Source: a virus. From it: a stretch of DNA of 64,000 nt. The translations under genes were made by a program, and so were the position numbers. Positions 11,283-38,168 of the stretch are shown here, in pieces; positions within the stretch are counted from its first letter, which is position 1, and every line of letters begins with the position of its first letter. The notes below the pieces were generated by a model. The model worked only from the letters and a program-made list of their open reading frames with translations, did not search any database and was not told where the DNA came from. The stretch lies in IMG/VR virus record IMGVR_UViG_3300032323_001868, positions 1 to 64,000 of that record. One strand, 5' to 3'.

Positions 11283-11564
11283 ATGAAACAGCACATATGG
11301 AAAGATAGTGCTTCATGTTTAGGTCTTGAAACTAACATCTTTTTTGATAAGTATGAAGATGATCCAACATTGCGTCTAGCAATAGATTCAATTTGTAGTT
11401 CATGTCCAGTTGCAAAGCAATGTTTTGCGGTAGGAGTTTCTGGAAAAGAGTGGGGTGTCTGGGGCGGTGTTTATATTGAGGCTGGCGAAATATCTAGAGA
11501 GTTTAATAATCACAAAAGTAAAAACGATTGGGCACAAACATGGAAAACATTGACAATGGATTAA
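11283..11564 (+). CDS. whiB: WhiB-family Fe-S transcription factor
   Basis: four Cys (C..ICSSCPVAKQC) and EWGVWGG. Confidence 0.9.
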   Translation: MKQHIWKDSASCLGLETNIFFDKYEDDPTLRLAIDSICSSCPVAKQCFAVGVSGKEWGVWGGVYIEAGEISREFNNHKSKNDWAQTWKTLTMD

Positions 11565-25418: not shown

Positions 25419-25700
25419 TTAGGCATTCTTGTTAGTCCTATCTGATATAGCAAATGCTAGTTGATATGTAAGGGCATAGACACTAGACAAAGCGTCCATG
25501 TATCCTGAATTATATAAGCGCTCAACGGTGTCTTCATATTCCTCATCAGAACCAAGTTCATCAGAGTTCTCCAGCAGAGGCACGAGTATCTTCTCACACT
25601 CATACATCATATTCTTAAGTTCACCATGGAGGATATCAGTACCTGACTCTCCTAGGTCTACGAGTTTTTGCAGTCTTGGGTTTAGTTGTGTTGTTTCCAT
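25419..25700 (-). CDS. hypothetical early protein, predicted leaderless
   Basis: ATG falls exactly at predicted +1 of promoter 25707-25728. Confidence 0.65.
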   Translation of the reverse strand: METTQLNPRLQKLVDLGESGTDILHGELKNMMYECEKILVPLLENSDELGSDEEYEDTVERLYNSGYMDALSSVYALTYQLAFAISDRTNKNA

Positions 25701-25706
25701 TACTCT

Positions 25707-25728
25707 ATCATATCCTGTGCCACTGACA
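25707..25728 (-). promoter_or_regulatory. PafBC/RecA-NDp-type promoter
   Basis: TGTCAG-TGGCACAGGA-TATGAT. Confidence 0.7.
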
Positions 25729-26043: not shown

Positions 26044-26662
26044 TGTGGGATTTCCTTTCTGTGGTCTTAATATTAATTATAAGGGTTGGTGTTGATTTTT
26101 ACAACTTTTGAGGATGTGATACTAATCACAGGGGCCATCTGTTCTGGCTCTACCGCTGTTCTTACGACAAAGGTATCCAATGAGCAAACACAGGCGGGAT
26201 CGTGATTAGGAGTCTTATTAGTGATAACTTCCATCAGGGCATCACAATCAGTACAAACATAACTATACTTGGTCCACATAGGCAACCTCCATTAAATAAG
26301 CATCAGTATCACATACATCACATAGGTGTACATAATCACTGTCGTCCCAATTAGACATACACATGTTACACCTGGTCATCATCCCTCCCAATATTGCATA
26401 ATGGTATTCATTGTGATATGGAGATTGCAATCACAGTCTTCTCCACCCATGTTCTCATGGAACTCAAAGTGTGATAGGTTGTCCTCATAAATTTCCATTA
26501 CGAGTTCTGATATTGTGTATGGTTTGTAGGTGGTAGTCATATATTAATTGTAGCCTAGAACCTGGGAAAAATCAACTCTATCGTAATTACTTTTTTAATT
26601 GTATTTATTTAGTTACTGATAAGTATGTCCTATTTGTACCATTTTGGAACGTCCCGCATTTG

Positions 26663-26736
26663 CGATCTGTACGGGACTTGAACCCGTGATCTCTACCGTG
26701 ACAGGGTAGCGAATTAACCAACTATTCTAACAGACC
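26663..26736 (-). tRNA. tRNA-Asp(GTC)
   Basis: GGTCTGT/ACAGATC, CTACC-CTGTCAC-GGTAG, GGTTCAAGTCC; no CCA. Confidence 0.9.
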
Positions 26737-26738
26737 AG

Positions 26739-26767
26739 TGAGCAGTTTTATTTCATGCTCAGGAAAT
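26739..26767 (-). ncRNA. H-type pseudoknot repeat, copy B
   Basis: ATTTC-C-TGAGCA-T-GAAAT-AAAAC-TGCTCA. Confidence 0.72.
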
Positions 26768-26771
26768 TGTA

Positions 26772-27788
26772 TCATGCTAGTTGCATGACATTCTGCACAA
26801 CTTTCAGCAGACGATTCTTTTCTGCGTTGATAGCAGGGTCAAATCCACTTGCACTTGCAAGGATAGATTCGTTATTGCCACCTCGTGCTGTACGATACCA
26901 GTCAAGGCGTTCTGTAAGTGCATTGAAAGCGCCCCATGCAGAGCCAGCAATCATGCCGTTAAATTCGCCTGTGTAAATATCGTTGATAATATCTACCTTG
27001 TTCTCCCACTTCTTGACGGCACCCTTAGAATCTTTTTCAGGCTTAGGGTAAGCAGCGAGAATAATATCGTTGAATTGCTTAGCATTGACTTCCTTCTCGA
27101 ACATAGCCTTAGCCATGATGTCAAATTCGTCCATGTATGCATTAGCAAGACCAAGAGTCTCACGAGCAATCTGCACTTTACCATTGGCAGTCTGCGTGTG
27201 GCGAATCTTGAATGATTGCTTGATACCATTCTTCTTCTTGCGTGAGCCTAGTGCAAGATTAAGAGTATTAGCGCACACCACACGAACAGGTGTAATGCTT
27301 GCTTGAATAGCGATTGAGCCATCGTGTGATGTGTTGATGAGCAAATAAGTCTTTACCTTATCTGCAACACCGCTAGGGTCTAGTACAGTCTCACGCTCTA
27401 ATGCAAGAGAGCCGAATACTACACGCCCACCCTTGATAGCGCCAGCGGTTTCCCAACGACCACCACCATCTAGGATATTGTCACCGAATGAGAATAAGTC
27501 TTCATTCTGCAATACATGATAACGCTCACCAACTACACCAAGAACATCTGTCTGGGTATTAGTTGTAGGGTTAGTGCGTACGACATATTGGTATTCTTTG
27601 TCGCTTGTTAAGTGTGATGGAATTGGCATTTCTTCAAGACGAACATTCCAACCATTGAGGTTTGCAGCCTCTAGCATTTCTGCGGTTGTTTTTTCTTCTG
27701 TGAATACAGTACCCAATCCATGCCATGCAGGTTCACGGAAAGATGCAAAAGATGCCTTGCCGTTTTGTGATTCTAGGTCATGTGCCAT
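26772..27788 (-). CDS. DUF932 / TIGR03299-like phage protein
   Basis: REPAWHGLG, Y..LQN, ETAG...GG..VF, SHDGS, TPVRVVCANTL, RHT. Confidence 0.85.
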   Translation of the reverse strand: MAHDLESQNGKASFASFREPAWHGLGTVFTEEKTTAEMLEAANLNGWNVRLEEMPIPSHLTSDKEYQYVVRTNPTTNTQTDVLGVVGERYHVLQNEDLFSFGDNILDGGGRWETAGAIKGGRVVFGSLALERETVLDPSGVADKVKTYLLINTSHDGSIAIQASITPVRVVCANTLNLALGSRKKKNGIKQSFKIRHTQTANGKVQIARETLGLANAYMDEFDIMAKAMFEKEVNAKQFNDIILAAYPKPEKDSKGAVKKWENKVDIINDIYTGEFNGMIAGSAWGAFNALTERLDWYRTARGGNNESILASASGFDPAINAEKNRLLKVVQNVMQLA

Positions 27789-27820
27789 GAGTGTTTCTCC
27801 TTTTTGTTGTTGATAATATA

Positions 27821-27842
27821 ACTATACACCAAGCCAGCGACA
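27821..27842 (-). promoter_or_regulatory. PafBC/RecA-NDp-type promoter
   Basis: TGTCGC-TGGCTTGGTG-TATAGT. Confidence 0.6.
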
Positions 27843-27953
27843 TATGCAAATCAGGATAGTTAGATGTGTACAAATCGGACATTTTTAAGGGTGTCGTAAT
27901 TCACATCGTAAATACTTGACAAGATCAACTTTTGCGGGACGTGCAATAAAAAG

Positions 27954-27984
27954 TGAGCCGTTTACATGGACAATGCTCAGGTCC
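27954..27984 (-). ncRNA. H-type pseudoknot repeat, copy C
   Basis: GGAC-C-TGAGCA-TT-GTCC-ATGTAAAC-GGCTCA. Confidence 0.62.
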
Positions 27985-28030
27985 CTTGCCTAGTTTAAAG
28001 ACATTCGACATGTCTATTAGTAGCCCCCTA

Positions 28031-28483
28031 CTAAATATTATCCTCTGCCTGAATTGAGCGGGTATCAACATTGAAATCATCGATTGAATAATCAAATGAG
28101 TCAACACTGAATTCAAGTGTGTTGGCCACATCATCTGCGTCAACATCAAATGGTACTTCAATCTCAATCTCAAACTCTACAACTGCATTAACAGTTACAG
28201 TCTTGGTTAGTTCAAAGTCACCAATCTGTGCAAACATCTCTGCAACCTCGTGAGTGAACTCACGGTTACCAAGGCATTCAATAACATATTCTTTGATTGC
28301 ATCCTTGGTTGCTTGGTGTGCTCGTTGTTCTGCATACAATGATTGTGAGTGTTCGGATGAACGGTCCTGCAATGAGACAATCATCGCATCCTTCTTCTCA
28401 ATTAATTCCTGCAGCGCTACAGCCTGATTCTGAAGAAATTCTCGTGTCATGTAGTATTCATTGGTTAGTACTGGCTGGTCCAT
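28031..28483 (-). CDS. hypothetical early protein (coiled-coil N half)
   Basis: GAAAGAGG RBS. Confidence 0.7.
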   Translation of the reverse strand: MDQPVLTNEYYMTREFLQNQAVALQELIEKKDAMIVSLQDRSSEHSQSLYAEQRAHQATKDAIKEYVIECLGNREFTHEVAEMFAQIGDFELTKTVTVNAVVEFEIEIEVPFDVDADDVANTLEFSVDSFDYSIDDFNVDTRSIQAEDNI

Positions 28484-28515
28484 GGGGGCCTCTTTCTGTT
28501 GTTGTTATTAATATA

Positions 28516-28537
28516 AGTCTAGCAGCGGGTACCGACA
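28516..28537 (-). promoter_or_regulatory. PafBC-type promoter, full consensus
   Basis: TGTCGG-TACCCGCTGC-TAGACT. Confidence 0.75.
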
Positions 28538-28576
28538 AATGCAACTTAATGGTCTTAATAGTCTTACATATTGGGA

Positions 28577-28592
28577 TGTGATTAATCTCACA
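28577..28592. promoter_or_regulatory. CRP/GlxR-type box
   Basis: TGTGA-TTAATC-TCACA. Confidence 0.7.
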
Positions 28593-28616
28593 CTGCACGT
28601 CGCAAAAAACAGTGAG

Positions 28617-28645
28617 TGAGCAGTTTTATATCATGCTCAGGATAT
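28617..28645 (-). ncRNA. H-type pseudoknot repeat, copy D
   Basis: ATATC-C-TGAGCA-T-GATAT-AAAAC-TGCTCA. Confidence 0.72.
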
Positions 28646-28649
28646 TTAA

Positions 28650-28820
28650 TTACTTAGATGTTTTCACCATTGCAAATCGGTGTGAGCCGTTTGCTAACTT
28701 TAGTGAAACTCTAGTAAGTTTAGAGTTGATAGGTGTGAAGTTGCTAATGCGACCAGTAACACCTGTCTTGCTTGTGGTGAACAGATCACCGATTTGATAT
28801 GTATATCCGCCTAGTGTCAT
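28650..28820 (-). CDS. small beta-rich (SH3/KOW-like) protein, 56 aa
   Basis: MTLGGYTYQIGDLFTTSKTGVTG..; AAAGGA RBS; paralog of 29537..29698. Confidence 0.7.
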   Translation of the reverse strand: MTLGGYTYQIGDLFTTSKTGVTGRISNFTPINSKLTRVSLKLANGSHRFAMVKTSK

Positions 28821-28858
28821 TTGTTTTTTCCTTTTGTTAGTGGTGGTATTAAATTGTG

Positions 28859-28887
28859 TGAGCAGTTTTGGCTCTTACTCAGGAGGT
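28859..28887 (-). ncRNA. H-type pseudoknot repeat, copy E (short stem 1)
   Basis: CTC-C-TGAGTA-A-GAG-CCAAAAC-TGCTCA. Confidence 0.55.
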
Positions 28888-28989
28888 CTGCTTCTTTAGG
28901 TCTGCAGTAACCTTGCTCTATAGTATTTCTATTATCGCCCTAATCAGCCTGGCGAAATGAGTGGGGCTTTTACACCCCACCCAACTTTG

Positions 28990-29412
28990 CTAGAGGTAGC
29001 GAGCCACCGCATTGTATGTTGAAGTATTAACTACTTCTTCATCTGTCATCTTGAGGATACGAATTGCGTTTGTGATTTCTTCCTTCTGCTCACGATATGT
29101 GTGCTGATGGATAACCTCGAAATCCTTAGTTGGCTCTGTTGGCATATCCTTTTCGGATACTGTCAAATCGAAGTCAATGTTAAGGCAGTTATTCCATGAA
29201 CGATATGAAGTGCGGAAGTTTTCTGCCTTCTTGATGTTTGCTACTGCATAGTCAATAAGTTCCTTCTTATACTTCTCATACTGCTTTTGATACTTTGCTT
29301 CGTTGGCTTCTTGTGATGTGTAGTCTGCTTCTAGTTTAGCAAGTGCGCCTTCTAGTGCCTTGATTACCTTTGGTGTTGCGATTTTAACTGAGATTGCTTT
29401 TGCTCTTGACAT
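28990..29412 (-). CDS. hypothetical early protein
   Basis: AAAGGA RBS, strong codon bias. Confidence 0.75.
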   Translation of the reverse strand: MSRAKAISVKIATPKVIKALEGALAKLEADYTSQEANEAKYQKQYEKYKKELIDYAVANIKKAENFRTSYRSWNNCLNIDFDLTVSEKDMPTEPTKDFEVIHQHTYREQKEEITNAIRILKMTDEEVVNTSTYNAVARYL

Positions 29413-29459
29413 GGTGTTCCTTTTCTTTGGTGGTTGATATTTCTATTATAGGGGGTGGA

Positions 29460-29487
29460 TAAGCCTTTTTGCAACTTGCTTAGGTTG
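29460..29487 (-). ncRNA. H-type pseudoknot repeat, variant copy G
   Basis: CAAC-C-TAAGCA-A-GTTG-CAAAAA-GGCTTA (compensated stem 2). Confidence 0.6.
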
Positions 29488-29536
29488 GTTCACGCCTCTT
29501 GTTTATAGTGGCTGTACGCTAACCACTATGAAAGGC

Positions 29537-29698
29537 TTACGCCTTCCAAGTTGTCCAGCGTGTTGAGCCATTTACATCTAACTTAACACGAACTGTGTCC
29601 TTTGATGTTGGTACGATTTCAACGATTGTGCCTGTGACCTTTGACTTCTGTGAAGTGTAAGTGTCGCCGACCTTGTATGTTGCTACTGCTACTGTCAT
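29537..29698 (-). CDS. small beta-rich (SH3/KOW-like) protein, 53 aa
   Basis: MTVAVATYKVGDTYTSQKSKVTG..; GAAAGGA RBS. Confidence 0.7.
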   Translation of the reverse strand: MTVAVATYKVGDTYTSQKSKVTGTIVEIVPTSKDTVRVKLDVNGSTRWTTWKA

Positions 29699-29804
29699 GT
29701 TTTTTCCTTTTCTGTGTTGGTTTGTTATATTTCTAGTATATCCGAGAAATCTCAGAAATACAATTCCTAGCCTAGAGAATCTCATATTTTGAGACCCTTT
29801 CCCC

Positions 29805-29820
29805 TGTGATATAGGTCACA
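29805..29820. promoter_or_regulatory. CRP/GlxR-type box
   Basis: TGTGA-TATAGG-TCACA. Confidence 0.7.
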
Positions 29821-29887
29821 AGTTGCCTGTGATAAATAGGATAAGGAAACATATCCCTAGCCATAGTATGAATTTGTCCATAGTTCC

Positions 29888-30610
29888 CTACTTTTTGGTT
29901 GCACTAAATACTATATCAGATTTCTCATAAATACACAACTTGCAACTAGCGCATGCAGACCCTTTCTGTGAGATAAGTGGAATAGCCTTTTTATTCTCAG
30001 GGCACTTAGCCCCAGGCTTGCCTGTTAACTCCTTCATGTCTTCTTGTCCTATTAAGAAATTTTTGGCAAGGTATGCAAGGGAGATATTATGATCTGCTTT
30101 AAGTCCTATACCTATAGCCTTATTATCGCTATCTGTGGAATAGTATAGTGAAAGATTAGGAATGTCTTTTAGAATAAGCGCTGCAGACTTAACTCTGGTA
30201 TATACCCAGAATTGAATGTCTGGATACTTATCAACAACTACCTTCCATGCATATGCATAAGTATCATTAAAGAAATCTCCGTCCCAGTGGATACGGAATT
30301 GCTTAGGTGCATTGCGCTTATCGCACTCTGCATTAAAATCATTAATCATTTCATTAAGTAGACGGACCATAGTTTCTCCGTCTGCATTGCGTAGTAGTTC
30401 CCAGTTATGCAATAGGTTTTTCTTTACTGTTGGGAATATCTTTTCTAACTTGCCTGCATAGCAAACACTTTCGCAGACACTAGTAGCGCCAGGACATGAA
30501 TAGTTTTTACCTGCAGGTAATCCGAATGTGTTAGCGATACTTGCTTGTTTTCCATTAGGGGTGACGGCATTAGCAACTTTTCTATCTTTAGAGCGTAGTA
30601 GTTTAGTCAT
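29888..30610 (-). CDS. GP88-family protein (Cys-cluster, radical-SAM-like)
   Basis: FGLPAG..CPGAT..C...CYA, FRIHWDGDF, FW.YTR, C..C.LC. Confidence 0.75.
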   Translation of the reverse strand: MTKLLRSKDRKVANAVTPNGKQASIANTFGLPAGKNYSCPGATSVCESVCYAGKLEKIFPTVKKNLLHNWELLRNADGETMVRLLNEMINDFNAECDKRNAPKQFRIHWDGDFFNDTYAYAWKVVVDKYPDIQFWVYTRVKSAALILKDIPNLSLYYSTDSDNKAIGIGLKADHNISLAYLAKNFLIGQEDMKELTGKPGAKCPENKKAIPLISQKGSACASCKLCIYEKSDIVFSATKK

Positions 30611-30755
30611 GGTGGGACCCTCTTTCTTTTTTTAATTTTAGCATTAGCGACTGACATTTCTTTCTGTCATATTTCTTTTTATTAGGTACCGCAGAGGCCG
30701 CATTGCTACGGCGTAATTCCATAAGCCTGCGTAATTCCTCGGGTGTTTTTTTCAT
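30603..30755 (-). CDS. small basic protein (LRRSNAA motif), leaderless
   Basis: TTGTAT-N17-TAAAAT-N6-ATG. Confidence 0.55.
   Translation of the reverse strand: MKKTPEELRRLMELRRSNAASAVPNKKKYDRKKCQSLMLKLKKERGSHHD
30635..30656 (-). promoter_or_regulatory. PafBC/RecA-NDp-type promoter
   Basis: TGTCAG-TCGCTAATGC-TAAAAT. Confidence 0.68.
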
Positions 30756-30826
30756 ATAATAATTTTAGCAAAAATCAGGGAAAAATACAAGTTGGTCTTA
30801 ATTAGGGTAAATCGGACATTTGTGGT

Positions 30827-30840
30827 GCGGGACGTCCCGC
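30827..30840. repeat. perfect palindrome GCGGGACGTCCCGC (cassette-boundary box)
   Basis: half-sites recur at 23466, 26649, 27934, 32135, 33342. Confidence 0.7.
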
Positions 30841-30845
30841 CTTTG

Positions 30846-31088
30846 CTACTCGTCTTTTTCTATATAAACATAGAGGTCAACATATGTGTCGTGTGCAATT
30901 GTTATTGTATCTGGTTCACCATACACATCAACACAATCGATAAAGTAATTGTCTCCAGTTGAATCAGAATTGATATCAATTACTTCGATGAGTTCATCAT
31001 CAATCTTGATTAGATCATCAGGCATCAGAGAACCTGGTGTTAATTTATCTGCCCATACTAGATCCATGTTGTTTATTGTATCAGCCAT
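30846..31088 (-). CDS. hypothetical early protein
   Basis: ORF track. Confidence 0.6.
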   Translation of the reverse strand: MADTINNMDLVWADKLTPGSLMPDDLIKIDDELIEVIDINSDSTGDNYFIDCVDVYGEPDTITIAHDTYVDLYVYIEKDE

Positions 31089-31164
31089 TTATTCGTCCTC
31101 TTCGCTAGAAATACATTCATAACAATCACAATATTTTGAGTGGGGAATAAAAAAATCTTCCATA

Positions 31165-31500
31165 TTACCCCTCATCATATTCTAGTGAGAGTGGGAAGTC
31201 ATCAGACCCATCTTGCCAGTCATCGGCTGGCTCAATAAATACATCAAGGTGATGCTGGTCTACGATAGCGTGTGCAGGTGCTTGAGTTTCTCCACGATAA
31301 AGAATCTGAAAGTCACCAACCTTCGGCATGTCAATCATGCGGTCATAGTCCTCATCATAGAAGGCGTCAATGGCTTCAATGCAAGGTTGCACCATTTCTG
31401 CGGGGACTGGAGGATAGTGATTAGCCTTAAGGTGATAGAGAATCTGAGTCTCCAAGTCAAGGACTTCTTCTTTAATTCCTAGTGCTGTAACTGAACCCAT
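31165..31500 (-). CDS. hypothetical early protein
   Basis: HL.ANHYPPVP..MV.PC.EAI, IVDQHHL. Confidence 0.7.
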   Translation of the reverse strand: MGSVTALGIKEEVLDLETQILYHLKANHYPPVPAEMVQPCIEAIDAFYDEDYDRMIDMPKVGDFQILYRGETQAPAHAIVDQHHLDVFIEPADDWQDGSDDFPLSLEYDEG

Positions 31501-31501
31501 A

Positions 31502-31717
31502 TTACTTACCCCCTACATTTCCATTACGATAAAAGATTTTGGTGTGCATTTTGCCATTAGGCTCTGACAAGTTAATTGTGCGATATTCTTTTGCATCTCC
31601 ATAGTCGTTGCATGCCATGAACGCACCAACGGCAGAAAGAGCATCACTATAGCGACCAACCCATTCAGGGCTAGTGCTATTGTCATTAGTTGAAGTAACT
31701 GAGTATAAGTATTCCAT
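31502..31717 (-). CDS. hypothetical early protein
   Basis: AAGGAG RBS. Confidence 0.65.
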   Translation of the reverse strand: MEYLYSVTSTNDNSTSPEWVGRYSDALSAVGAFMACNDYGDAKEYRTINLSEPNGKMHTKIFYRNGNVGGK

Positions 31718-32008
31718 TAGTTGTAACTCCTTTTACATTCTGAGCATAGATAGTTTAATTTGCAATAGCAACCTACTGCGTTTGGGCGGAGCATATCCGT
31801 TTCATAGTATTCGTCATAGAAATCCATACTAGTTAGCCTCTTTTGTTAGGAATAGTTGGTCAATGTAGTCATAGCCTATCATGGCTTCTACCTCTCGGTC
31901 AAGGTAGCAACGGAAGCAATAGAGTTCGGTTACATCTACTGCATTTTCATTACACTGCATGCATACATGTGCGGTCATGGGAGCCTTCTTTCTTAAGTTG
32001 ATATAAAT

Positions 32009-32030
32009 ATCCTATCATATGGGGGTGACA
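32009..32030 (-). promoter_or_regulatory. PafBC/RecA-NDp-type promoter
   Basis: TGTCAC-CCCCATATGA-TAGGAT. Confidence 0.62.
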
Positions 32031-32069
32031 AAGTGAAGTTCATAAGCCAAGTTCTGCGAAAATTAATGG

Positions 32070-32085
32070 TGTGAACTTAATCACA
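32070..32085. promoter_or_regulatory. CRP/GlxR-type box
   Basis: TGTGA-ACTTAA-TCACA. Confidence 0.7.
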
Positions 32086-32094
32086 CTTAATGCC

Positions 32095-32134
32095 TGTGGA
32101 TAACTACCTGGCTTGTGGATAACCCTGTGGAAAA
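32095..32134 (-). promoter_or_regulatory. three DnaA boxes
   Basis: TTATCCACA at 32095 and 32114, TTTTCCACA at 32126 (minus strand). Confidence 0.72.
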
Positions 32135-32150
32135 CGGGACGTTGAAAATT

Positions 32151-32179
32151 TGAGCAGTTTTAGATCGTGCTCAGGATTT
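32151..32179 (-). ncRNA. H-type pseudoknot repeat, copy F
   Basis: AAATC-C-TGAGCA-C-GATCT-AAAAC-TGCTCA. Confidence 0.68.
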
Positions 32180-32331
32180 TAGTTTATCGCTTTTGATTAA
32201 AACGACTTAGTGTAACCAACTCATTGTGTAGTCTAGAATTTTCTTTGACTAGTTCTATGTTTTGTTTCCAGAATAAAAACATAACTGTTATTGAGCCAGC
32301 AAGTGCAATTATGATTGCAAGTAAATCCCAG

Positions 32332-32523
32332 TTAGTTAGCATTTCTTGTCTCCATTTCCTCGCATGCTTGTGTAAATCTATCACGATTAAAGTTTGGATT
32401 GTCGCTTGCAAAAAAATCTGCAAAGTCATTTACCAAATCTTCCCACCAGTAATTATCTATCATGGCTTTTTGGTATCCTGAAAGAATATCTGCAACTGCT
32501 ACATAGTCTTTGCGTGTCATCAT
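32332..32523 (-). CDS. hypothetical early protein
   Basis: MTRKDY..VA..DNPNF..DRF..AC. Confidence 0.7.
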   Translation of the reverse strand: MMTRKDYVAVADILSGYQKAMIDNYWWEDLVNDFADFFASDNPNFNRDRFTQACEEMETRNAN

Positions 32524-32729
32524 TAGTCTGCCACCTTTAGAATTGCGTACGAGCCGTTTTCGTTGATTTCATCTAACGCAGGCTGAATGCGTGGTGCAAG
32601 AACTTCTTTTAGCAGGCCTTCAAGCATTGTTTTACGCATTGTTGATTCTAGTGCAAGAATCTGCATTCCTACTGGATGAGTTTCGTCAATTTCTGTAACG
32701 AACTTTAGAGAGTGTTCAACTTTTACCAT
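32523..32729 (-). CDS. hypothetical early protein
   Basis: TAATG coupling. Confidence 0.65.
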   Translation of the reverse strand: MVKVEHSLKFVTEIDETHPVGMQILALESTMRKTMLEGLLKEVLAPRIQPALDEINENGSYAILKVAD

Positions 32730-32911
32730 TAGAGTGTAGCCTTTCCACGAAGTGTTCCACGAACGCCGAGTGCGTCACATGATAGTTTTACAGATACGCC
32801 AGCAGGTAGCGTGTTAGGATAAGTGCTGATAAATTGTGCAACTGCACCTCGTGAGGGTAGTTGAATGGTTTTAACTGTACCATTAAAAGTTTCTAGATTT
32901 ACTTTATACAT
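32729..32911 (-). CDS. hypothetical early protein, paralog of 34854..35027
   Basis: shared KV.L..G..I.L.S..V..FI..Y..TL..VK..CD.LG..G.L.G. Confidence 0.7.
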   Translation of the reverse strand: MYKVNLETFNGTVKTIQLPSRGAVAQFISTYPNTLPAGVSVKLSCDALGVRGTLRGKATL

Positions 32912-32912
32912 A

Positions 32913-33128
32913 TTAGTTTTCCTTTCTTACTGCAACTGTACGGAATGTTTTGCGACCCCATGTGTTAGAACCGCTGTAAGGTGCGATTTCTACAAGGTAG
33001 GTGTCGCAATCTGCATACCATACCGCTTTAGGGTGTGGCTCTGCACTTATGATTTCTCCACGCATTGTTTTGGAGATATATTCTTTTCCCACAAGTAGGG
33101 ACTGGACATTGTAGACATTTGCAGACAT
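32913..33128 (-). CDS. hypothetical early protein
   Basis: first gene after promoter 33164-33185. Confidence 0.65.
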   Translation of the reverse strand: MSANVYNVQSLLVGKEYISKTMRGEIISAEPHPKAVWYADCDTYLVEIAPYSGSNTWGRKTFRTVAVRKEN

Positions 33129-33163
33129 AAGTTTGTCTCACTTTCTTTTTTGTTAATATAGCA

Positions 33164-33185
33164 AGTGTAGCATTTTTGGGTGACA
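33164..33185 (-). promoter_or_regulatory. PafBC/RecA-NDp-type promoter
   Basis: TGTCAC-CCAAAAATGC-TACACT. Confidence 0.6.
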
Positions 33186-33223
33186 ATATCAAATTGAGAA
33201 TCGGACATATCAGACAAATTGAA

Positions 33224-33239
33224 TGTGAGGTTGGTCACA
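33224..33239. promoter_or_regulatory. CRP/GlxR-type box
   Basis: TGTGA-GGTTGG-TCACA. Confidence 0.7.
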
Positions 33240-33273
33240 TCGTTTTGCTACTTTATTTAATTTTATAGATAGA

Positions 33274-33314
33274 ATCTTAGCATAAGTAATCTTAAAAGTC
33301 AAGACGACACGCCG
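33274..33314 (-). promoter_or_regulatory. sigma-A promoter with upstream WhiA-type GACAC site
   Basis: CGGCGTGTCG-TC-TTGACT-N17-TAAGAT. Confidence 0.55.
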
Positions 33315-33470
33315 TAAATGTAATGTGATTTACACCACAGGGGGACGTCGTGCACGTCGCATTTTTATGCAATGATCTGCATAGTCATTCAGTCAAGTGT
33401 AACCAGATTGAATAAATAAATAACCCAAATAAAAAAAAGAATGCAGCGTTACCATTTAAATAAAATTCTT

Positions 33471-34163
33471 TCATCGCTCACGCACCTCCGCTAATTCGTT
33501 GCGAAATGATTCCGCAGTCTCATGTTGTTGTTTCAATGTGAGCGAAGCCCACAAGTAACCCATTAGGTAAGCGTTACCACTATCTACATCGCCACGAATA
33601 TCTTGTGACATAGATTTTACATATTGAAGTAATTGCATATCTGCCATTTTTATATCTCCCAACAATTTTCGCAGGTAAATTTTGTGAAGTCTCTATCTTT
33701 CAATAGAATCTCCATGAAGTTGTTATCGCATACAGAGCAAGCGATTAAGTAAGTATCAGCCAGACGATAACGCCATGGCTCTGATTTAGACAAGAGACGA
33801 TTCTCTTGCACTTCTGAAGCGATTAGAATTGACATTAGTGTTGCTCCTCGCAATCTTCTACATAGTTGAATTCGCAGAAGTAGCAACCCATGGTTTCGCC
33901 ATGTGCCTTGCATACATACTTGAACTGTGATTCCTCACAGCAATAACGCATTTCATCTTTGATTAGATAAAATTCATTTTGGTCAATGTAGGTATCTATC
34001 ATCAGTTACCTGCCTTTCTGCAACGAATACCATCGTTGCCTACATAGCGATTTAGACCTGCAACGAAAGTAATTGTTTCGTTACAGTAGAAGCAATCGCC
34101 ATTACGATTAGGGAAGTGCAGAGTAGGCTTAAGGCTATCTGCGGGGGCATATAGTGAGTTCAT
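33471..34163 (-). other. run of four tiny, mostly Cys-rich ORFs (33471..33647, 33650..33835, 33835..34002, 34002..34163)
   Basis: TAATG/TGATG overlaps, GAAAGG RBS. Confidence 0.6.
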
Positions 34164-34193
34164 GTGAACCCCTTTCTTTAACTTGATATAACT

Positions 34194-34215
34194 ATCTTAG
34201 CATGGGGGTCTGACA
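34194..34215 (-). promoter_or_regulatory. PafBC/RecA-NDp-type promoter (leftward)
   Basis: TGTCAG-ACCCCCATGC-TAAGAT. Confidence 0.68.
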
Positions 34216-34428
34216 AATTGACTCAGACATTACGGAATAAAACGGACATTTAGTACAAAACTTTTTATGTGATTAGCGCCACATTTCGGGGGATTCAATA
34301 ACATTTCCATAACAATCTTAACACTATCGGCGTGTCGATTTGACAACGTGCTGGCACGTCCAGTGTGATGTAGAACACATGTGATGCATACCACAAAGTC
34401 CAGAATGTCCGATTTGTACCCCTCAAAA

Positions 34429-34450
34429 TGTCGGTGGTATATGTTAGGAT
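34429..34450 (+). promoter_or_regulatory. PafBC-type promoter, full consensus (rightward)
   Basis: TGTCGG-TGGTATATGT-TAGGAT. Confidence 0.75.
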
Positions 34451-34482
34451 AGTTACTATCAAGATAAAGAAAGGTGGTCTCC

Positions 34483-34659
34483 ATGACTACATTAACACAT
34501 ACACATACACCTAACATGGGTGCAATATCCGAATACAACGAAACTAAGTACACTTTCTGTACAGATTGTGAGCAAAATATAGAATCGTTCTATATTGAAT
34601 CAGACGGAGACCGCTTAGGTATGTGGTCTGATTGGAGATTGTCAAACATATGTTGGTAG
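34483..34659 (+). CDS. hypothetical early protein (CxxC)
   Basis: GAAAGGTGG RBS after promoter. Confidence 0.6.
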   Translation: MTTLTHTHTPNMGAISEYNETKYTFCTDCEQNIESFYIESDGDRLGMWSDWRLSNICW

Positions 34660-34853
34660 ATATTTTTCTCTGCGATGGTTGCGATACACTTGCTAAGGTA
34701 AGTGTTATAGCATCAACTATTTACATAGAGCCATGCCTATGTCAAACGAAATAGAAAGGCGCAGGGCTCACCTTGCAAGCGGGGGAACAATAGCAAACTA
34801 TGACCGCTCTCACTATCCACAATGGCACAAAGATAAATTAGAAAAGGAATCAA

Positions 34854-35027
34854 ATGAAAGTAACACTCACATCAATGTCAGGCAACACACACAACATTAA
34901 CCTCATGTCTAAGCAGGAGGTATATGACTTTATTGACCTTTATAAATCTACACTTTTAAAAAATCAAAGAGTAAAAATTACATGCGATATTTTAGGAATT
35001 GACGGGTATCTACAAGGTACATCGTAG
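34854..35027 (+). CDS. hypothetical early protein, paralog of 32729..32911
   Basis: AAAGGA RBS; MKVTLTSMSGNTHNINLMSKQEV.. Confidence 0.7.
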   Translation: MKVTLTSMSGNTHNINLMSKQEVYDFIDLYKSTLLKNQRVKITCDILGIDGYLQGTS

Positions 35028-35355
35028 ACCGATCCCGTGTGTGCTCACTAATCTTAAGTGATATTTTTTACTGTATTGCGTATCATACATCTGAGAAAAA
35101 TATTCAGATTTTTGGGAAATGAAAAATTTTTCAGATTTTCGGGTATACAAAGGTGCTATAATCTATATATGACAGAAGATACAACTGGTAAAAACTGCTG
35201 TGCTGAATGCACATGCGAGAACCCACATCAATCAAAACCACAAGACTAACCCCTTATGGCAATACTAGACAATTTTGAGAACTCTTGGGACATAGAGTAC
35301 CCAAACCTCATTTCAAAAACATTTTCAGATTTGGTATGCTCAGACTGCCAACAAA

Positions 35356-35559
35356 CTACTGATAAACCTTACATATCCGACAAGCCACAAAGCCATGCTC
35401 ACATTTTGGCAGGGGACGAATAATCTTATACTGATCCAGATAGAACCTAATTAAATCTGGATGAACACCTGCTATCTCAGATATCCACTTAACACTACGA
35501 CCCATAACGATATACTGGTTTTTCAACCATTCTTCACTTTGCCAGTCTCTCATTACCAT
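35356..35559 (-). CDS. small HTH-like protein
   Basis: EWLKNQY...SVKWISEIAGV. Confidence 0.5.
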   Translation of the reverse strand: MVMRDWQSEEWLKNQYIVMGRSVKWISEIAGVHPDLIRFYLDQYKIIRPLPKCEHGFVACRICKVYQ

Positions 35560-35753
35560 TTACCTATCGGACATTTAGCATGAAGCAACTCGGTTTTAAG
35601 TTTCATAAAGCAATGACATTTTTTGCAGCGGGATCCATTCTTCTTAAAGAACTCACATCCAGAACATATTTTTAAGCGGGAGTTAACAACCTCTTCACTG
35701 GCTCTTGGAGAAGAAGGCTTTAACCAATCTCCAAATGTAACATCTTCTGGCAC
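35553..35753 (-). CDS. Cys-rich zinc-binding protein
   Basis: RLKICSGC..CKKCHCFM..K..CPIGKW. Confidence 0.65.
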   Translation of the reverse strand: MPEDVTFGDWLKPSSPRASEEVVNSRLKICSGCEFFKKNGSRCKKCHCFMKLKTELLHAKCPIGKW

Positions 35754-36006
35754 ATTATCTCCAAACCATCATCATAATAACAAATAAAAAAACAATAAAC
35801 TGACTATATGAAAACATTCCCAATATACCGCTATCCACATAACCTATTATAGCCCATACGAAGGTTTGAAGCCACTTGTAGACATAGTTGGGAGTATCTC
35901 CCATAGATTGTCTAGAGGATGGTTTGTATAACCTCTATTTTCGGCTTGACTCGTATCCCGCCGAAATTAAAGACTATTTATCTTAGAACTCTGGTATACT
36001 TCTTGT

Positions 36007-36288
36007 ATGACCCAACACCTACTTACCACTCTTAGCAACACTGAGGCTACACGCCTAACTCCAAACGGAACTCATACTGGTTTGGACATTACTATTCAAA
36101 ATGTACATGAATCAGCATATGTTTATATTGGTGGAATTGGAGTGACTTCCAATAATTATGGATACCGCCTTGCTCCAGGTGCTGCGTGGTCTATTGAACT
36201 TTCAGGTAAAGATTCTTTATATGCAATTACTGACACTAATACTTCCAAAGTGGCAGTTCTTTCTACAAACCTAGAATCAGGAAATTAA
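36007..36288 (+). CDS. hypothetical, probable virion protein
   Basis: leaderless; IQN..VYIGG..V..YG.RL. Confidence 0.65.
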   Translation: MTQHLLTTLSNTEATRLTPNGTHTGLDITIQNVHESAYVYIGGIGVTSNNYGYRLAPGAAWSIELSGKDSLYAITDTNTSKVAVLSTNLESGN

Positions 36289-36290
36289 TT

Positions 36291-37628
36291 ATGGCACGGT
36301 TTACCCAAGCAGGTGGATCAGGTTCGGGAGAACCAGGACCACAGGGCCCAGCAGGAGAAAACGGCACTAATGGCTCAAATGGAGCAGATGGTGCAGATGC
36401 TCTATGGAATTATGTTGGGGAATACAACGGTGGTGCATCATATGCTGTAGGAGATGTTGCAACTTATGATGGACAACTTTGGTACCGTGCTAATGCAAAC
36501 GGTGGAAATGTTGGAGATACACCTTCAGAAGGATTTATCTGGAATTTACTTGCAGCAAAGGGTATTAACGGTGCTGATGGAGCAGATGGCAATGATGGTG
36601 CTCCTGGTGCAGATGGTGCACAGGGAGATACTGGTAGTCCAGGACTTGTTTATTTAGGCAGTTATGTTTCTGGTAATGGATACATTGCAAACATTGCTGT
36701 TGTAAAAGGAAGCGATAACAATCTTTACATAGCAACATCAAGTGGTGGATTAGGAGATCCAGTTGGAAATAGTGCAGAGTGGAGCATATTCCTTCCAAAG
36801 GGTGTTGATGGAGAAGATGCAACTCTTCCACAGGATTTAGGAACAACAGACAGCCCAACATTTAGCAAGATTACACTTACAAGTAACGGGGCAATAGATA
36901 ACATTACAATTGGTGATGATGTACTTATTGGTGATGGAAATATTGCAAACCACTTAGTAATTGTTGGAAATCAAGATTCAACACAAGGTGGAATTGTTCT
37001 TGGTGACAATAAAACTGAACAAGTTTCATCATATGGATCAAATCTTTCTTTATATGCAAACAATGACATTATTCTTAATCCAGCAAGCACATATGCATAT
37101 ATTGGTACACCAACTATCGGTGGAGAAACAAGGATTGCTACTTGGGATTATGTGACAACATCTGTTGGAACAGGTAGCAATGGAGAAGTTACAAGATGGA
37201 CTCCAAACTTTACAGCAACTGGTTTAACATTTACTGGATCAGGTGCTACACATCCAACATACAATTCACACTATGTTAAGAATGGTCGTATGGTATCTTT
37301 TTTTATTGAAATTGATATGGCTACCGTTACAAATTTTGGTACTGGACAATATAAGACAGCGCTTCCATTTGCACCACTTTCTGGAACAATGAATCATTTT
37401 CAGTCATGGTGTCTTGTTGATGAAACTGCTAATCCAGATAATACAGGACATGCTATTTTGCAAGCAGATCATTTAGCAAATACATCAGTTCTTGATTTGC
37501 ACTACATAAAGCAATCTGGTGGAGCAAATTCTCCAGTAATGGAAGCATTGTTTAAGCAGGGTAGCCCAGTAACATTAACTACTGCAACCCATGTTTATAT
37601 CAACGGTACTTACATAACTGCTGAGTAG
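36291..37628 (+). CDS. collagen-like tail fibre protein
   Basis: G-X-Y runs (GEPGPQGPAGENG; GADGADGNDGAPG), Y.VGDV..Y.G..W modules. Confidence 0.75.
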   Translation: MARFTQAGGSGSGEPGPQGPAGENGTNGSNGADGADALWNYVGEYNGGASYAVGDVATYDGQLWYRANANGGNVGDTPSEGFIWNLLAAKGINGADGADGNDGAPGADGAQGDTGSPGLVYLGSYVSGNGYIANIAVVKGSDNNLYIATSSGGLGDPVGNSAEWSIFLPKGVDGEDATLPQDLGTTDSPTFSKITLTSNGAIDNITIGDDVLIGDGNIANHLVIVGNQDSTQGGIVLGDNKTEQVSSYGSNLSLYANNDIILNPASTYAYIGTPTIGGETRIATWDYVTTSVGTGSNGEVTRWTPNFTATGLTFTGSGATHPTYNSHYVKNGRMVSFFIEIDMATVTNFGTGQYKTALPFAPLSGTMNHFQSWCLVDETANPDNTGHAILQADHLANTSVLDLHYIKQSGGANSPVMEALFKQGSPVTLTTATHVYINGTYITAE

Positions 37629-37664
37629 TAGTAAATAGTGATATAGTTATATTTGGGGGTAGAT

Positions 37665-38168
37665 ATGTCATATCAGGTATTTGATAACTTTTTGTTACCT
37701 AACGAATTTAACCAAGTTAAGAACACTGTATGCGATCCAAGATTTCCTTGGGGATATAGTAGTTCTATTACGACTGAAGTAAGCACTGGACCATATGACT
37801 TTCAGTTTGTTCACATGTTTTATCAAAATCATAGAGTTATGTCAGAACACTTTGAATCTATATACCCTTTAATAAACAAAATAAATCCAGCAGCAATCGC
37901 AAGAGTTAAGGCAAATTTAGTTACTAGGAATCCAGTAAGTAACGAGTTTGGATATCACACAGATTTTGAAGATGCACATTTATTGAAGTCAGCGGTATAT
38001 TATTTAGATACAACCGATGGCGTTACCAGGTTTAAGGACGGCACAGAGGTAGAATGCATAGAGAATAGACTATTAGTATTTAACAATAATATGCCACATA
38101 CTTCTACTAGTTGTACGGATCAAAAGGTTAGAAGAGTCATAAATCTCAACTATTATGAACTAATTTAA
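37665..38168 (+). CDS. 2OG-Fe(II) oxygenase (cyanophage-like)
   Basis: RVKANL, YHTD, ENRL.VF, H.S..CTD..R.VIN.NY. Confidence 0.8.
   Translation: MSYQVFDNFLLPNEFNQVKNTVCDPRFPWGYSSSITTEVSTGPYDFQFVHMFYQNHRVMSEHFESIYPLINKINPAAIARVKANLVTRNPVSNEFGYHTDFEDAHLLKSAVYYLDTTDGVTRFKDGTEVECIENRLLVFNNNMPHTSTSCTDQKVRRVINLNYYELI

Follow-up and report, generated by a model that had tools for sequence, protein, structure and literature searches.

Phage promoters wired to host regulators are known, with LexA-, CRP- and IHF-dependent examples. In Mycobacterium and other Actinobacteria, the PafBC-dependent (RecA-NDp) promoters share the motif tGTCgg(N10)tA(N3)T, in which a -26 element (-23 to -28) whose GTC is invariant precedes a canonical -10, and there is no -35 (PMC8635444). 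PafBC sits between region 4 of sigma-A and the DNA, an arrangement denoted 'sigma adaptation', and a parallel between PafBC promoters and the middle promoters of phage T4 has been drawn (PMC8635444); PafBC is activated by single-stranded DNA (ssDNA) (PMC11804915). Here we analyze the intergenic region at positions 34164-34482 (hereafter, the hub) of a 64-kb stretch of virus DNA (the window), which comprises the first 64 kb of the 89,761-bp IMG/VR record IMGVR_UViG_3300032323_001868 (82% complete by estimate). The hub sits between the start of a leftward open reading frame (ORF) at 34163 and the start of a rightward ORF at 34483, that is, at a coding-strand switch, and appears to contain promoters of the PafBC type in both directions. 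In the literature that we searched, there was no description of PafBC-type phage promoters, nor of such a two-way hub with phased palindromes.

We consider it rather probable that the hub is a cis-regulatory two-way promoter region of a small, probably early, gene block, built from reusable modules that would be read in a regulator-dependent manner. Judged by sequence comparison, the hub is real and conserved, and it probably ties the small-gene program to the state of the host instead of soaking up host proteins. Both predicted promoters point outward, with the leftward block downstream of P_L and a rightward small-ORF unit downstream of P_R, and each is preceded by an ATGTCCG-type element at approximately -40 to -60 and, further upstream, by 16-bp palindromes. 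A previous sequence-only reading of this DNA had listed most of the motifs concerned, and all of them lie at, or within 1-2 nt of, the places where it had put them. The features of the hub and the genes that flank it are as follows.

34002-34163, minus strand: 53-aa orphan ORF that contains CxxC and opens the leftward block of small genes (ORF list, translation, homologs in the related loci L004, L012 and L014)
34166-34203, no strand: left arm of an inverted repeat, with the -10 region of P_L, an A-rich leader and the Shine-Dalgarno (SD) sequence GAAAGGGG (34169-34176, minus), found by repeat search
34194-34215, minus strand: P_L, leftward PafBC-type promoter TGTCAG-N10-TAAGAT with a TGc extended -10 (position matrix score 29.3; predicted start ~34187)
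34224-34250, minus strand: two ATGTCYG elements upstream of P_L, ATGTCTG (34224-34230) and ATGTCCG (34243-34249), the second inside a 3-mismatch copy of a 16-mer at 34235-34250
34268-34283, no strand: CRP-like palindrome 1, TGTGATTAGCGCCACA, found by pattern search, centered 60.5 nt from the TGTC of P_L (~-88.5), off the main phase of the family
34294-34314, plus strand: direct repeat TTCAATAACA / TTCCATAACA with an 11-bp period, probably due to chance or strain-specific
34328-34359, plus strand: composite module, variant B, CGGCGTGTCG-AT-TTGACA followed by a GC-rich palindrome; without a -10 and so incomplete as a promoter
34364-34395, no strand: abutting CRP-like palindromes 2 and 3, TGTGATGTAGAACACA and TGTGATGCATACCACA, centered 57.5 and 41.5 nt from the TGTC of P_R (~-85.5 and -69.5)
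34404-34419, plus strand: perfect copy of the 16-mer AATGTCCGATTTGTAC, at -53 to -38 of P_R, found by 16-mer search
34429-34450, plus strand: P_R, rightward PafBC-type promoter TGTCGG-N10-TAGGAT with a TGt extended -10 (predicted start ~34457)
34441-34479, no strand: right arm of the inverted repeat, with the -10 region of P_R, a leader and the SD sequence AAGGTGG (34471-34477), found by repeat search
34483-34659, plus strand: 58-aa orphan ORF, CxxC-containing, first gene of the rightward unit (homologs in 48 of the 80 related loci)

The back-to-back PafBC-type promoters proposed earlier match the published motif in both sequence and spacing. The GTC triplet of the -26 element is present in P_L (TGTCAG, 34215-34210, minus strand) and in P_R (TGTCGG, 34429-34434), the hexamer of the latter being the published consensus letter for letter, and the distance from the hexamer to TAnnnT is exactly 10 nt in both hub promoters and in all 8 in the window. 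The loose pattern TGTCRG-N10-TAnnnT has 13 matches in the window compared to 6.4 expected; eight of these are located within 25.7-34.5 kb, seven of them co-oriented with the genes, and are followed by a leader, an SD sequence and an ATG. Six further copies of this cassette (promoter, leader, SD and ATG) are found on the minus strand between 25.7 and 33.2 kb. In the hub itself, the segments 34166-34203 and 34441-34479 form a 38-nt imperfect inverted repeat (87% complementary), with a nearly identical A-rich leader and strong SD after both promoters; this repeat is not mentioned in the sequence-only reading, and the string GATAGTTA(N0-1)TATCAAG occurs only twice in the window, in its two arms.

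The PafBC-type pattern has 777 matches on the gene strand and 159 on the opposite strand of the 80 related loci, and positions that the pattern leaves unconstrained are informative, namely A at -3, G at +5 (after TGTCA), CC, the TG of the extended -10 and AA inside the -10; the family -26 consensus reads TGTCAGtcc rather than TGTCGGtg. The family logo contains no -35 information (less than 0.2 bit at the -35 positions, with TTGACw there in 23 of the 426 promoters). The position matrix was trained on pattern matches, is circular at the constrained positions and was used only to locate sites; as evidence for the promoter class, we counted only strand bias, unconstrained positions and box distances. 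Canonical sigma-70-type sites are not enriched in the 25-39 kb region (47 vs 48.3 expected), and canonical promoters were rejected as the main class on that ground. At the sequence level, the phage promoters agree with the PafBC-dependent promoters (PMC8635444, PMC11804915) in every feature by which the latter were described: TGTCRG at -23 to -28, the invariant GTC, the 10-nt gap to TAnnnT and the missing -35. They differ from the host promoters as described in being located on a phage, where 8 or more of them form an array that would express small orphan genes, in the TGTCAGtcc consensus combined with a strong extended -10, and in the addition of the upstream ATGTCCG 16-mer and of phased palindromes. 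At one further promoter, TGTCAG-N10-TATGAT at 25700-25728 (minus strand), the ATG is just 6 nt past the -10, and the message of the respective 93-aa ORF (25419-25700) is probably leaderless. Leaderless messages are common in Actinobacteria.

The two CGGACAT motifs noted earlier, at 34243 (plus) and 34405 (minus), belong to a set of 10 in the window where 2.4 are expected and constitute the core of the recurrent 16-mer AATGTCCGATTTGTAC, which has 10 matches at up to 3 mismatches (0.61 expected) and a second perfect copy at 27868 (minus strand). Read as ATGTCCG, the element lies just upstream of each hub promoter in the promoter's own orientation, at 24 nt from P_R and 34 nt from P_L. Across the family, it precedes 96 of the 426 promoters (8.5 expected) with a co-orientation of 99:18, and its distances from TGTC peak at 23-24, 33-34 and 41 nt, the 34-nt position at P_L coinciding with a family peak.

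The three CRP-like boxes of the hub (34268, 34364 and 34380), which had also been recognized from the sequence, fit TGTGA-N6-nCACA, each with one mismatch in the right half-site. This pattern has 14 strand-matches in the window compared to 0.72 expected, all within 26.1-34.4 kb, including five perfect palindromes at 26115-33224, and among the distinct family promoters, 312 of 616 carry the palindrome 20-120 nt upstream. Distances from the box center to TGTC peak at 36.5, 46.5, 56.5-57.5 and 74.5 nt, and the periodicity is maximal at 10 bp (R = 0.54 for the redundancy-reduced set of 426 promoters and 244 boxes), although, given the common descent of related promoters, these statistics overstate their independence. 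With TGTC placed at -28, the box centers fall at approximately -64.5, -74.5, -84.5 and -102.5, a class-I-like layout; the abutting pair at 57.5 and 41.5 nt recurs in many relatives, with 57.5 on phase and 41.5 being a recurrent half-turn position. As in class I CRP promoters (of the E. coli lac type) and actinobacterial Crp/GlxR operators, a 16-bp TGTGA-N6-TCACA palindrome is located upstream of the core promoter and, across the family, box distances step by about one helical turn. Unlike in the E. coli CRP classes, the predicted centers (-64.5, -74.5, -84.5) are approximately 3 bp off; furthermore, boxes often form abutting pairs at a 16-bp spacing, the core promoter is of the PafBC type, and the three sites of the hub each have an imperfect half-site, with one out of phase. 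A Rex-type reading of the boxes was rejected on inspection because the inner spacing and bases do not fit TGTGAA-N4-TTCACA.

The GACAC site of the sequence-only reading is present as GTGTC at 34332-34336, inside the 10-mer CGGCGTGTCG (two occurrences in the window vs 0.23 expected), and is followed after 3 nt by a perfect TTGACA (34340-34345) and then by the ACGTGC-TG-GCACGT palindrome ACGTGCTGGCACGT (34346-34359), which was also found as described; alone unremarkable, it belongs to a group of recurrent GC-rich segments that abut a box. As far as the comparison of related loci goes, the GACAC site, TTGACA and the palindrome are one module rather than separate motif types, and the earlier count of five motif types accordingly falls. 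The combination GTGTC-N2-7-TTGACw occurs 138 times in the related loci and is of two kinds: variant A, ACGGCGTGTCGyCTTGACT-17/18-TGnTAnnnT, which has all elements of a canonical promoter, and variant B, TATCrGCGTGTCGAyTTGACAA, which is followed by a GC-rich, often palindromic variable segment and then by a TGTGA...TCACA box, with no -10. The hub contains variant B (34328-34379 including the box): there is no TAnnnT 16-19 nt downstream of its TTGACA, and none is listed by the promoter scan. A sister variant A, CGGCGTGTCG-TC-TTGACT-17-TGcTAAGAT, is located at 33310-33274 (minus strand), approximately 100 nt upstream of, and in tandem with, a PafBC-type promoter at 33185; its core (33302-33274) is the sole good intergenic canonical promoter in the 25-39 kb region. 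In relatives, the variant A promoter has a conserved ATAACAATTAAATAA stretch downstream in place of an SD sequence, and this promoter may start a small RNA or a long leader. In variant B, the position and character of the GC-rich segment are kept and its sequence is not, suggesting that the segment has a structural or spacing function or that its specificity varies.

GC-rich segments with an ACGT core (e.g., GCGGGACGTCCCGC and GCGACGTGCA) are found at 27934, 28594, 30827, 32135, 33342-33358 and 34346, where they follow the pseudoknot and T-run at the end of a gene and lie immediately next to a box of the CRP-like or DnaA-like kind; their sequences differ among strains, with the GC-rich, often palindromic character retained. 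The protein WhiA recognizes GACAC sites that lie upstream of the -35 in either orientation and at distances that vary, and it works together with WhiB on region 4 of sigma-A (PMC10243135). The hub module resembles the WhiA/WhiB-activated promoters of Streptomyces (sepX type; PMC10243135) in having GACAC, as GTGTC, 3 nt ahead of the -35-like hexamer TTGACA, and the phage itself encodes a WhiB; unlike in the sepX-type promoters, the conserved unit is the 10-mer CGGCGTGTCG and not a 5-mer, and the hub version has no -10, the complete version being that at 33310-33274. The module is compatible with a WhiA/WhiB reading; we do not classify it as a WhiA/WhiB promoter because the conserved unit is the 10-mer and the hub copy lacks a core promoter.

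In the relatives, we detected 28 distinct back-to-back promoter pairs, all with 2-4 palindromes between the promoters; ATGTCCG is present in 25 of these hubs and the GTGTC-TTGAC element in 13, and the median distance from promoter to promoter is 221 nt, compared to 214 nt here. When the hub was compared with the relatives by short-word BLAST, single modules matched different loci: the left promoter cassette matches cassettes elsewhere in the relatives' blocks, and 34392-34432 matches relatives in the opposite orientation, which we read as module shuffling. Lake metagenome contigs were found in which the flanking genes are covered and the hub core is replaced, with exchange breakpoints at module edges (34163/4, 34220/1, 34345/6, 34364, 34384 and 34464-6); after TTGACA, relatives continue with GGCCGGGCCC...TTATCCACA. 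Among the matches listed, there is a close variant in which 34225 A>G converts the weaker CAGACAT to a perfect CGGACAT and 34309 A>G breaks the second ATAACA, both anecdotal. Inversion between the two inverted promoter copies was also considered, and none was seen in the lake metagenome contigs compared. The hub seems to be kept as an architecture and to evolve by module swapping between phage strains. The same catalogue of recurrent motifs, including the DnaA-box 9-mer TTATCCACA, which is strongly enriched upstream of family promoters (139 occurrences vs ~0.3 expected), is found in the other early intergenic blocks, in line with the earlier statement that such sites recur across the intergenic blocks, and the layout of each block is boxes, then promoter, then gene.

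Collectively, these observations suggest the following scheme. To use P_L and P_R, RNA polymerase of the host containing sigma-A would require an adaptor on the TGTC element that stands in for the absent -35 contact. The most economical candidate for this adaptor is the host PafBC activated by ssDNA, an assignment to which we give about an even chance. A dimeric regulator bound to the palindromes would tune both promoters from one face of the helix; this reader may be a host CRP-type protein or an orphan or unrecognized phage protein, with the abutting pairs arguing mildly against CRP. The remaining modules would supply further inputs, and the architecture would be retained while phage strains rebuild the hub by module exchange.

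The distribution of candidate readers was examined on both the phage and the host side. Six-frame searches of the whole 89.8-kb record detected no WYL domain, CRP-type helix-turn-helix (HTH), DnaA DNA-binding domain or sigma-70 region 2, and neither Pfam (all coding-strand frames, 1-34 kb) nor PHROGs (early block and the rightward unit at 34.5-35.8 kb) revealed any regulator except WhiB. WYL genes are present in 257 of the 301 sampled Actinomycetota; this tally includes 11 unpublished genomes (G123, G177, G151, G004, G271, G051, G091, G229, G021, G085 and G242), to which no individually named genome belongs. Four of the 6 small genomes in which the recA locus is 37-40% G+C contain WYL genes, and in one WYL-bearing genome (G023; 1.5 Mb, 38% GC at the recA locus), TGTCGC-N10-TATTAT is located just upstream of recA; PafBC-type promoters therefore appear to operate in streamlined low-GC Actinomycetota. 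Genes for CRP-type HTH proteins were detected in 33 of the 41 sampled Actinomycetota (two of these genomes, G004 and G021, are unpublished).

Several points weigh against the proposed scheme. That the phage host contains PafBC or a CRP-type protein is presumed. A number of Actinomycetota genomes of 1.3-1.6 Mb contain no WYL genes, and CRP-type HTH genes were found in 0 of 5 small low-GC genomes, which may be explained by incompleteness of these metagenome-assembled genomes (MAGs). The phage record is only 82% complete, and the motifs may in fact be read by small orphan proteins of the phage. Each of the three hub boxes has an imperfect half-site, and the box at 34268 is out of the family phase at 60.5 nt. 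Abutting 16-bp sites are unusual for CRP. Finally, a search of RNA runs for 31500-36500 found none carrying the region.

The strongest competing explanation, which we regard as unlikely although worth serious attention, is that the motifs are read by phage-encoded factors: P_L and P_R would be 'middle' promoters used via a MotA/AsiA-like adaptor, perhaps the phage WhiB acting on region 4 of sigma-A, and the palindromes would be operators of a small phage regulator. The combination of a -10 with an upstream box in place of the -35 is the design of T4 middle promoters too, in which a MotA box at -30 accompanies the -10 and AsiA remodels sigma region 4; in both systems, -35-less phage promoters have, or here are predicted to have, an adaptor approximately 11-13 bp upstream of the -10. 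Besides WhiB, the phage encodes dozens of small orphan proteins, and CxxC pairs occur in many of these; operators that abut in pairs are seen more typically with phage regulators than with CRP, the -26 element of the family reads TGTCAGtcc and not TGTCGGtg, and the candidate small host genomes often have no CRP-type HTH or WYL genes. Unlike in T4, however, no MotA- or AsiA-like gene is recognizable and the box equals the site of a host regulator; indeed, no HTH, WYL, sigma or MotA-like protein was recognized in the 89.8 kb, and canonical promoters from which such a factor could be expressed first are rare, with one good example at 33302-33274. Three unrelated motif types equal host consensus sequences exactly (PafBC, CRP and, nearby, TTATCCACA), which is improbable if all are phage-specific, and boxes located upstream of core promoters without overlap are unusual for repressor operators. 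The divergent early regions of the temperate phages lambda (PR/PRM) and 186 (pR/pL) and LexA- or CRP-wired phage promoters share with the hub back-to-back promoters, multiple palindromic operators between them and a (here predicted) coupling to host stress. Unlike in those systems, no repressor, Cro or integrase was recognized, the operators are placed upstream of the core promoters without overlap, and stress would be signaled through an activator (PafBC) and not through a repressor that is cleaved.

A bolder version of cis-regulation by host proteins, which we put forward only tentatively and would not bet on, is that the hub is a multi-input gate of borrowed host switches, in which PafBC is obligatory for both promoters, a CRP-type protein sets the level, and the GTGTC-TTGAC and ATGTCCG modules (along with DnaA boxes in sister strains) add cell-cycle inputs. 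If so, a virulent lake phage would read several host signals at a single 320-bp node, and these inputs would be rewired by swapping modules between strains. More generally, if host PafBC reads the promoters, a very abundant group of lake phages uses the ssDNA alarm as a start signal, and the hub would offer a small natural system in which to study sigma adaptation together with activation of the class I type. The ssDNA alarm also triggers anti-phage defenses. The module swapping amounts to a natural mutagenesis series and yields short, defined parts for reporters in Mycobacterium or Corynebacterium, within the practical limit that the host is uncultured. New here are the anatomy of the divergent hub and the inverted promoter/leader cassettes; the 16-mer behind CGGACAT; the recognition of GACAC, TTGACA and the palindrome as a single module, of which a sister form bears a promoter; the evidence from populations that modules are swapped; and the rejection of the sponge and OmpR readings, which are discussed below.

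Much less probable is the possibility that the hub doubles as, or adjoins, a replication origin, with the repeats, the palindromes and the DnaA boxes of relatives serving initiation and transcription activating the origin. One or two TTATCCACA boxes are present in 15 of the 28 related hubs, and three co-oriented DnaA-box-like 9-mers are found in the window at 32095-32134 (minus strand; two copies of TTATCCACA and one TTTTCCACA, starting at 32095, 32114 and 32126), flanked by an ACGT-core box on one side and a perfect CRP-like box on the other, and upstream of the promoter at 32030. Moreover, the cumulative GC skew has its minimum at approximately 34-36 kb, and no replication genes were recognized in 1-34 kb (Pfam detected no DNA polymerase, primase or helicase there). 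However, the skew minimum coincides with the coding-strand switch, an equally good explanation; the hub itself (34164-34482) contains neither a TTATCCACA-type DnaA box, even when one mismatch is allowed, nor a long AT-rich stretch suited to unwinding; and the ATAACA repeat does not exceed the chance level. In those relatives that have DnaA boxes in their hubs, an origin function is possible; it is not indicated for the present hub.

The sequence-only reading proposed that the hub is either a sensor of host state or a sponge for transcription factors. The first part appears plausible given the recurrence of host-like motifs and the lack of a recognizable phage CRP, WYL, DnaA or sigma protein. 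The second, according to which the hub and the other blocks mainly titrate global regulators of the host upon entry or after replication, seems to us very improbable. Sites are certainly numerous, with 9 palindromes and 10 ATGTCCG-type sites in approximately 9 kb and 7-19 box positions per related locus, and hundreds of genome copies could, after replication, bind a sizeable share of a scarce regulator. Yet the sites on a single entering genome would not suffice for the titration of a global regulator, boxes are followed by promoter and gene in each block, and the three boxes of the hub are the imperfect ones. We favor cis-regulation over a decoy because the palindromes are phased at 10 bp and ATGTCCG is co-oriented with the promoters, constraints of helical phase and orientation that a decoy does not need.

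The weakest explanation, that short motifs have accumulated by chance in an AT-rich spacer that holds ordinary promoters only, is compatible with the ATAACA repeat and with the palindrome taken in isolation and has a negligible probability otherwise, being refuted for the main motifs by their 4- to 20-fold or greater enrichment over shuffled sequences and by the conservation of the architecture in 28 distinct hubs. The two ATAACA copies are indeed present at 34298 and 34309, whereas the OmpR-family-like reading attached to them does not stand: ATAACA occurs 3 times compared to 1.24 expected, a number reached in 13 of 100 shuffles, and is not enriched upstream of family promoters (44 vs ~39). 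An OmpR-family site at ATAACA-N5-ATAACA was rejected as a single copy at chance level, unenriched in the family and broken in the close variant.

The actinobacterial setting assumed in the sequence-only reading is borne out despite the G+C content of the record (~37%). The window contains five tRNAs and long runs of small ORFs, and encodes a WhiB-family protein at 11283-11564 and a 240-aa protein of the Pfam family GP88 (L5-gp88-like); in a tblastn search of cultured phages, the latter matched 392 records, including 283 Mycobacterium and 101 Streptomyces phages. The combination of WhiB with a GP88-like gene indicates that this DNA is a phage arm of an actinophage and not a cellular island, and that the host is an actinobacterium, as far as gene content can tell. 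There are 221 related IMG/VR contigs on record, and the DNA runs carrying parts of the region are labeled as lake or freshwater metagenomes. No DNA similarity to cultured phages was detected for 33000-36000 by megablast or blastn, and a search of Rfam over the whole window yielded only tRNAs, i.e., no known RNA element within the hub.

Homologs of WhiB with 60-87% identity are encoded on five contigs (L083-L087) from MAGs labeled Acidimicrobiaceae, Methylococcus, Saccharibacteria and Chitinophaga; these contigs are probably mis-binned phage DNA that contaminates the MAGs, and the labels were not used as host evidence since the bins are most likely phage-contaminated. The isolated Nanopelagicales phages (PMC10202952) were likewise rejected as a pointer to the host, being 39-kb phages of a different group.

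Regarding the genes that flank the hub, the 53-aa ORF (34002-34163) belongs to no Pfam or PHROG family. Homologs of the 58-aa protein are found on either arm, sometimes on both arms or in two copies per locus, and CxxC pairs resembling zinc ribbons are present in both first genes and in many of the small ORFs nearby. A 57-aa ORF at 34854-35024 (plus strand) is kept in 73 of the 80 related loci, with paralogs on the other arm that are 41-48% identical; its AlphaFold model (pLDDT, the predicted local distance difference test, of 92) has a bb-a-bb fold without an HTH and no PDB match at E <= 0.001, the likenesses at the weakest level being to the small phage inhibitors T4/RB69 Dmd and AcrIF9. This conserved ORF was rejected as the reader of the palindromes given the confident fold without an HTH and no significant PDB match. 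Elsewhere, the phage encodes two glycosylases for the repair of ultraviolet damage, one denV-like (37653-38168) and the other of the Pyr_excise family (near 19 kb), as well as several 2-oxoglutarate-Fe(II) oxygenases, HSP20, a thioredoxin and a PnuC-like transporter.

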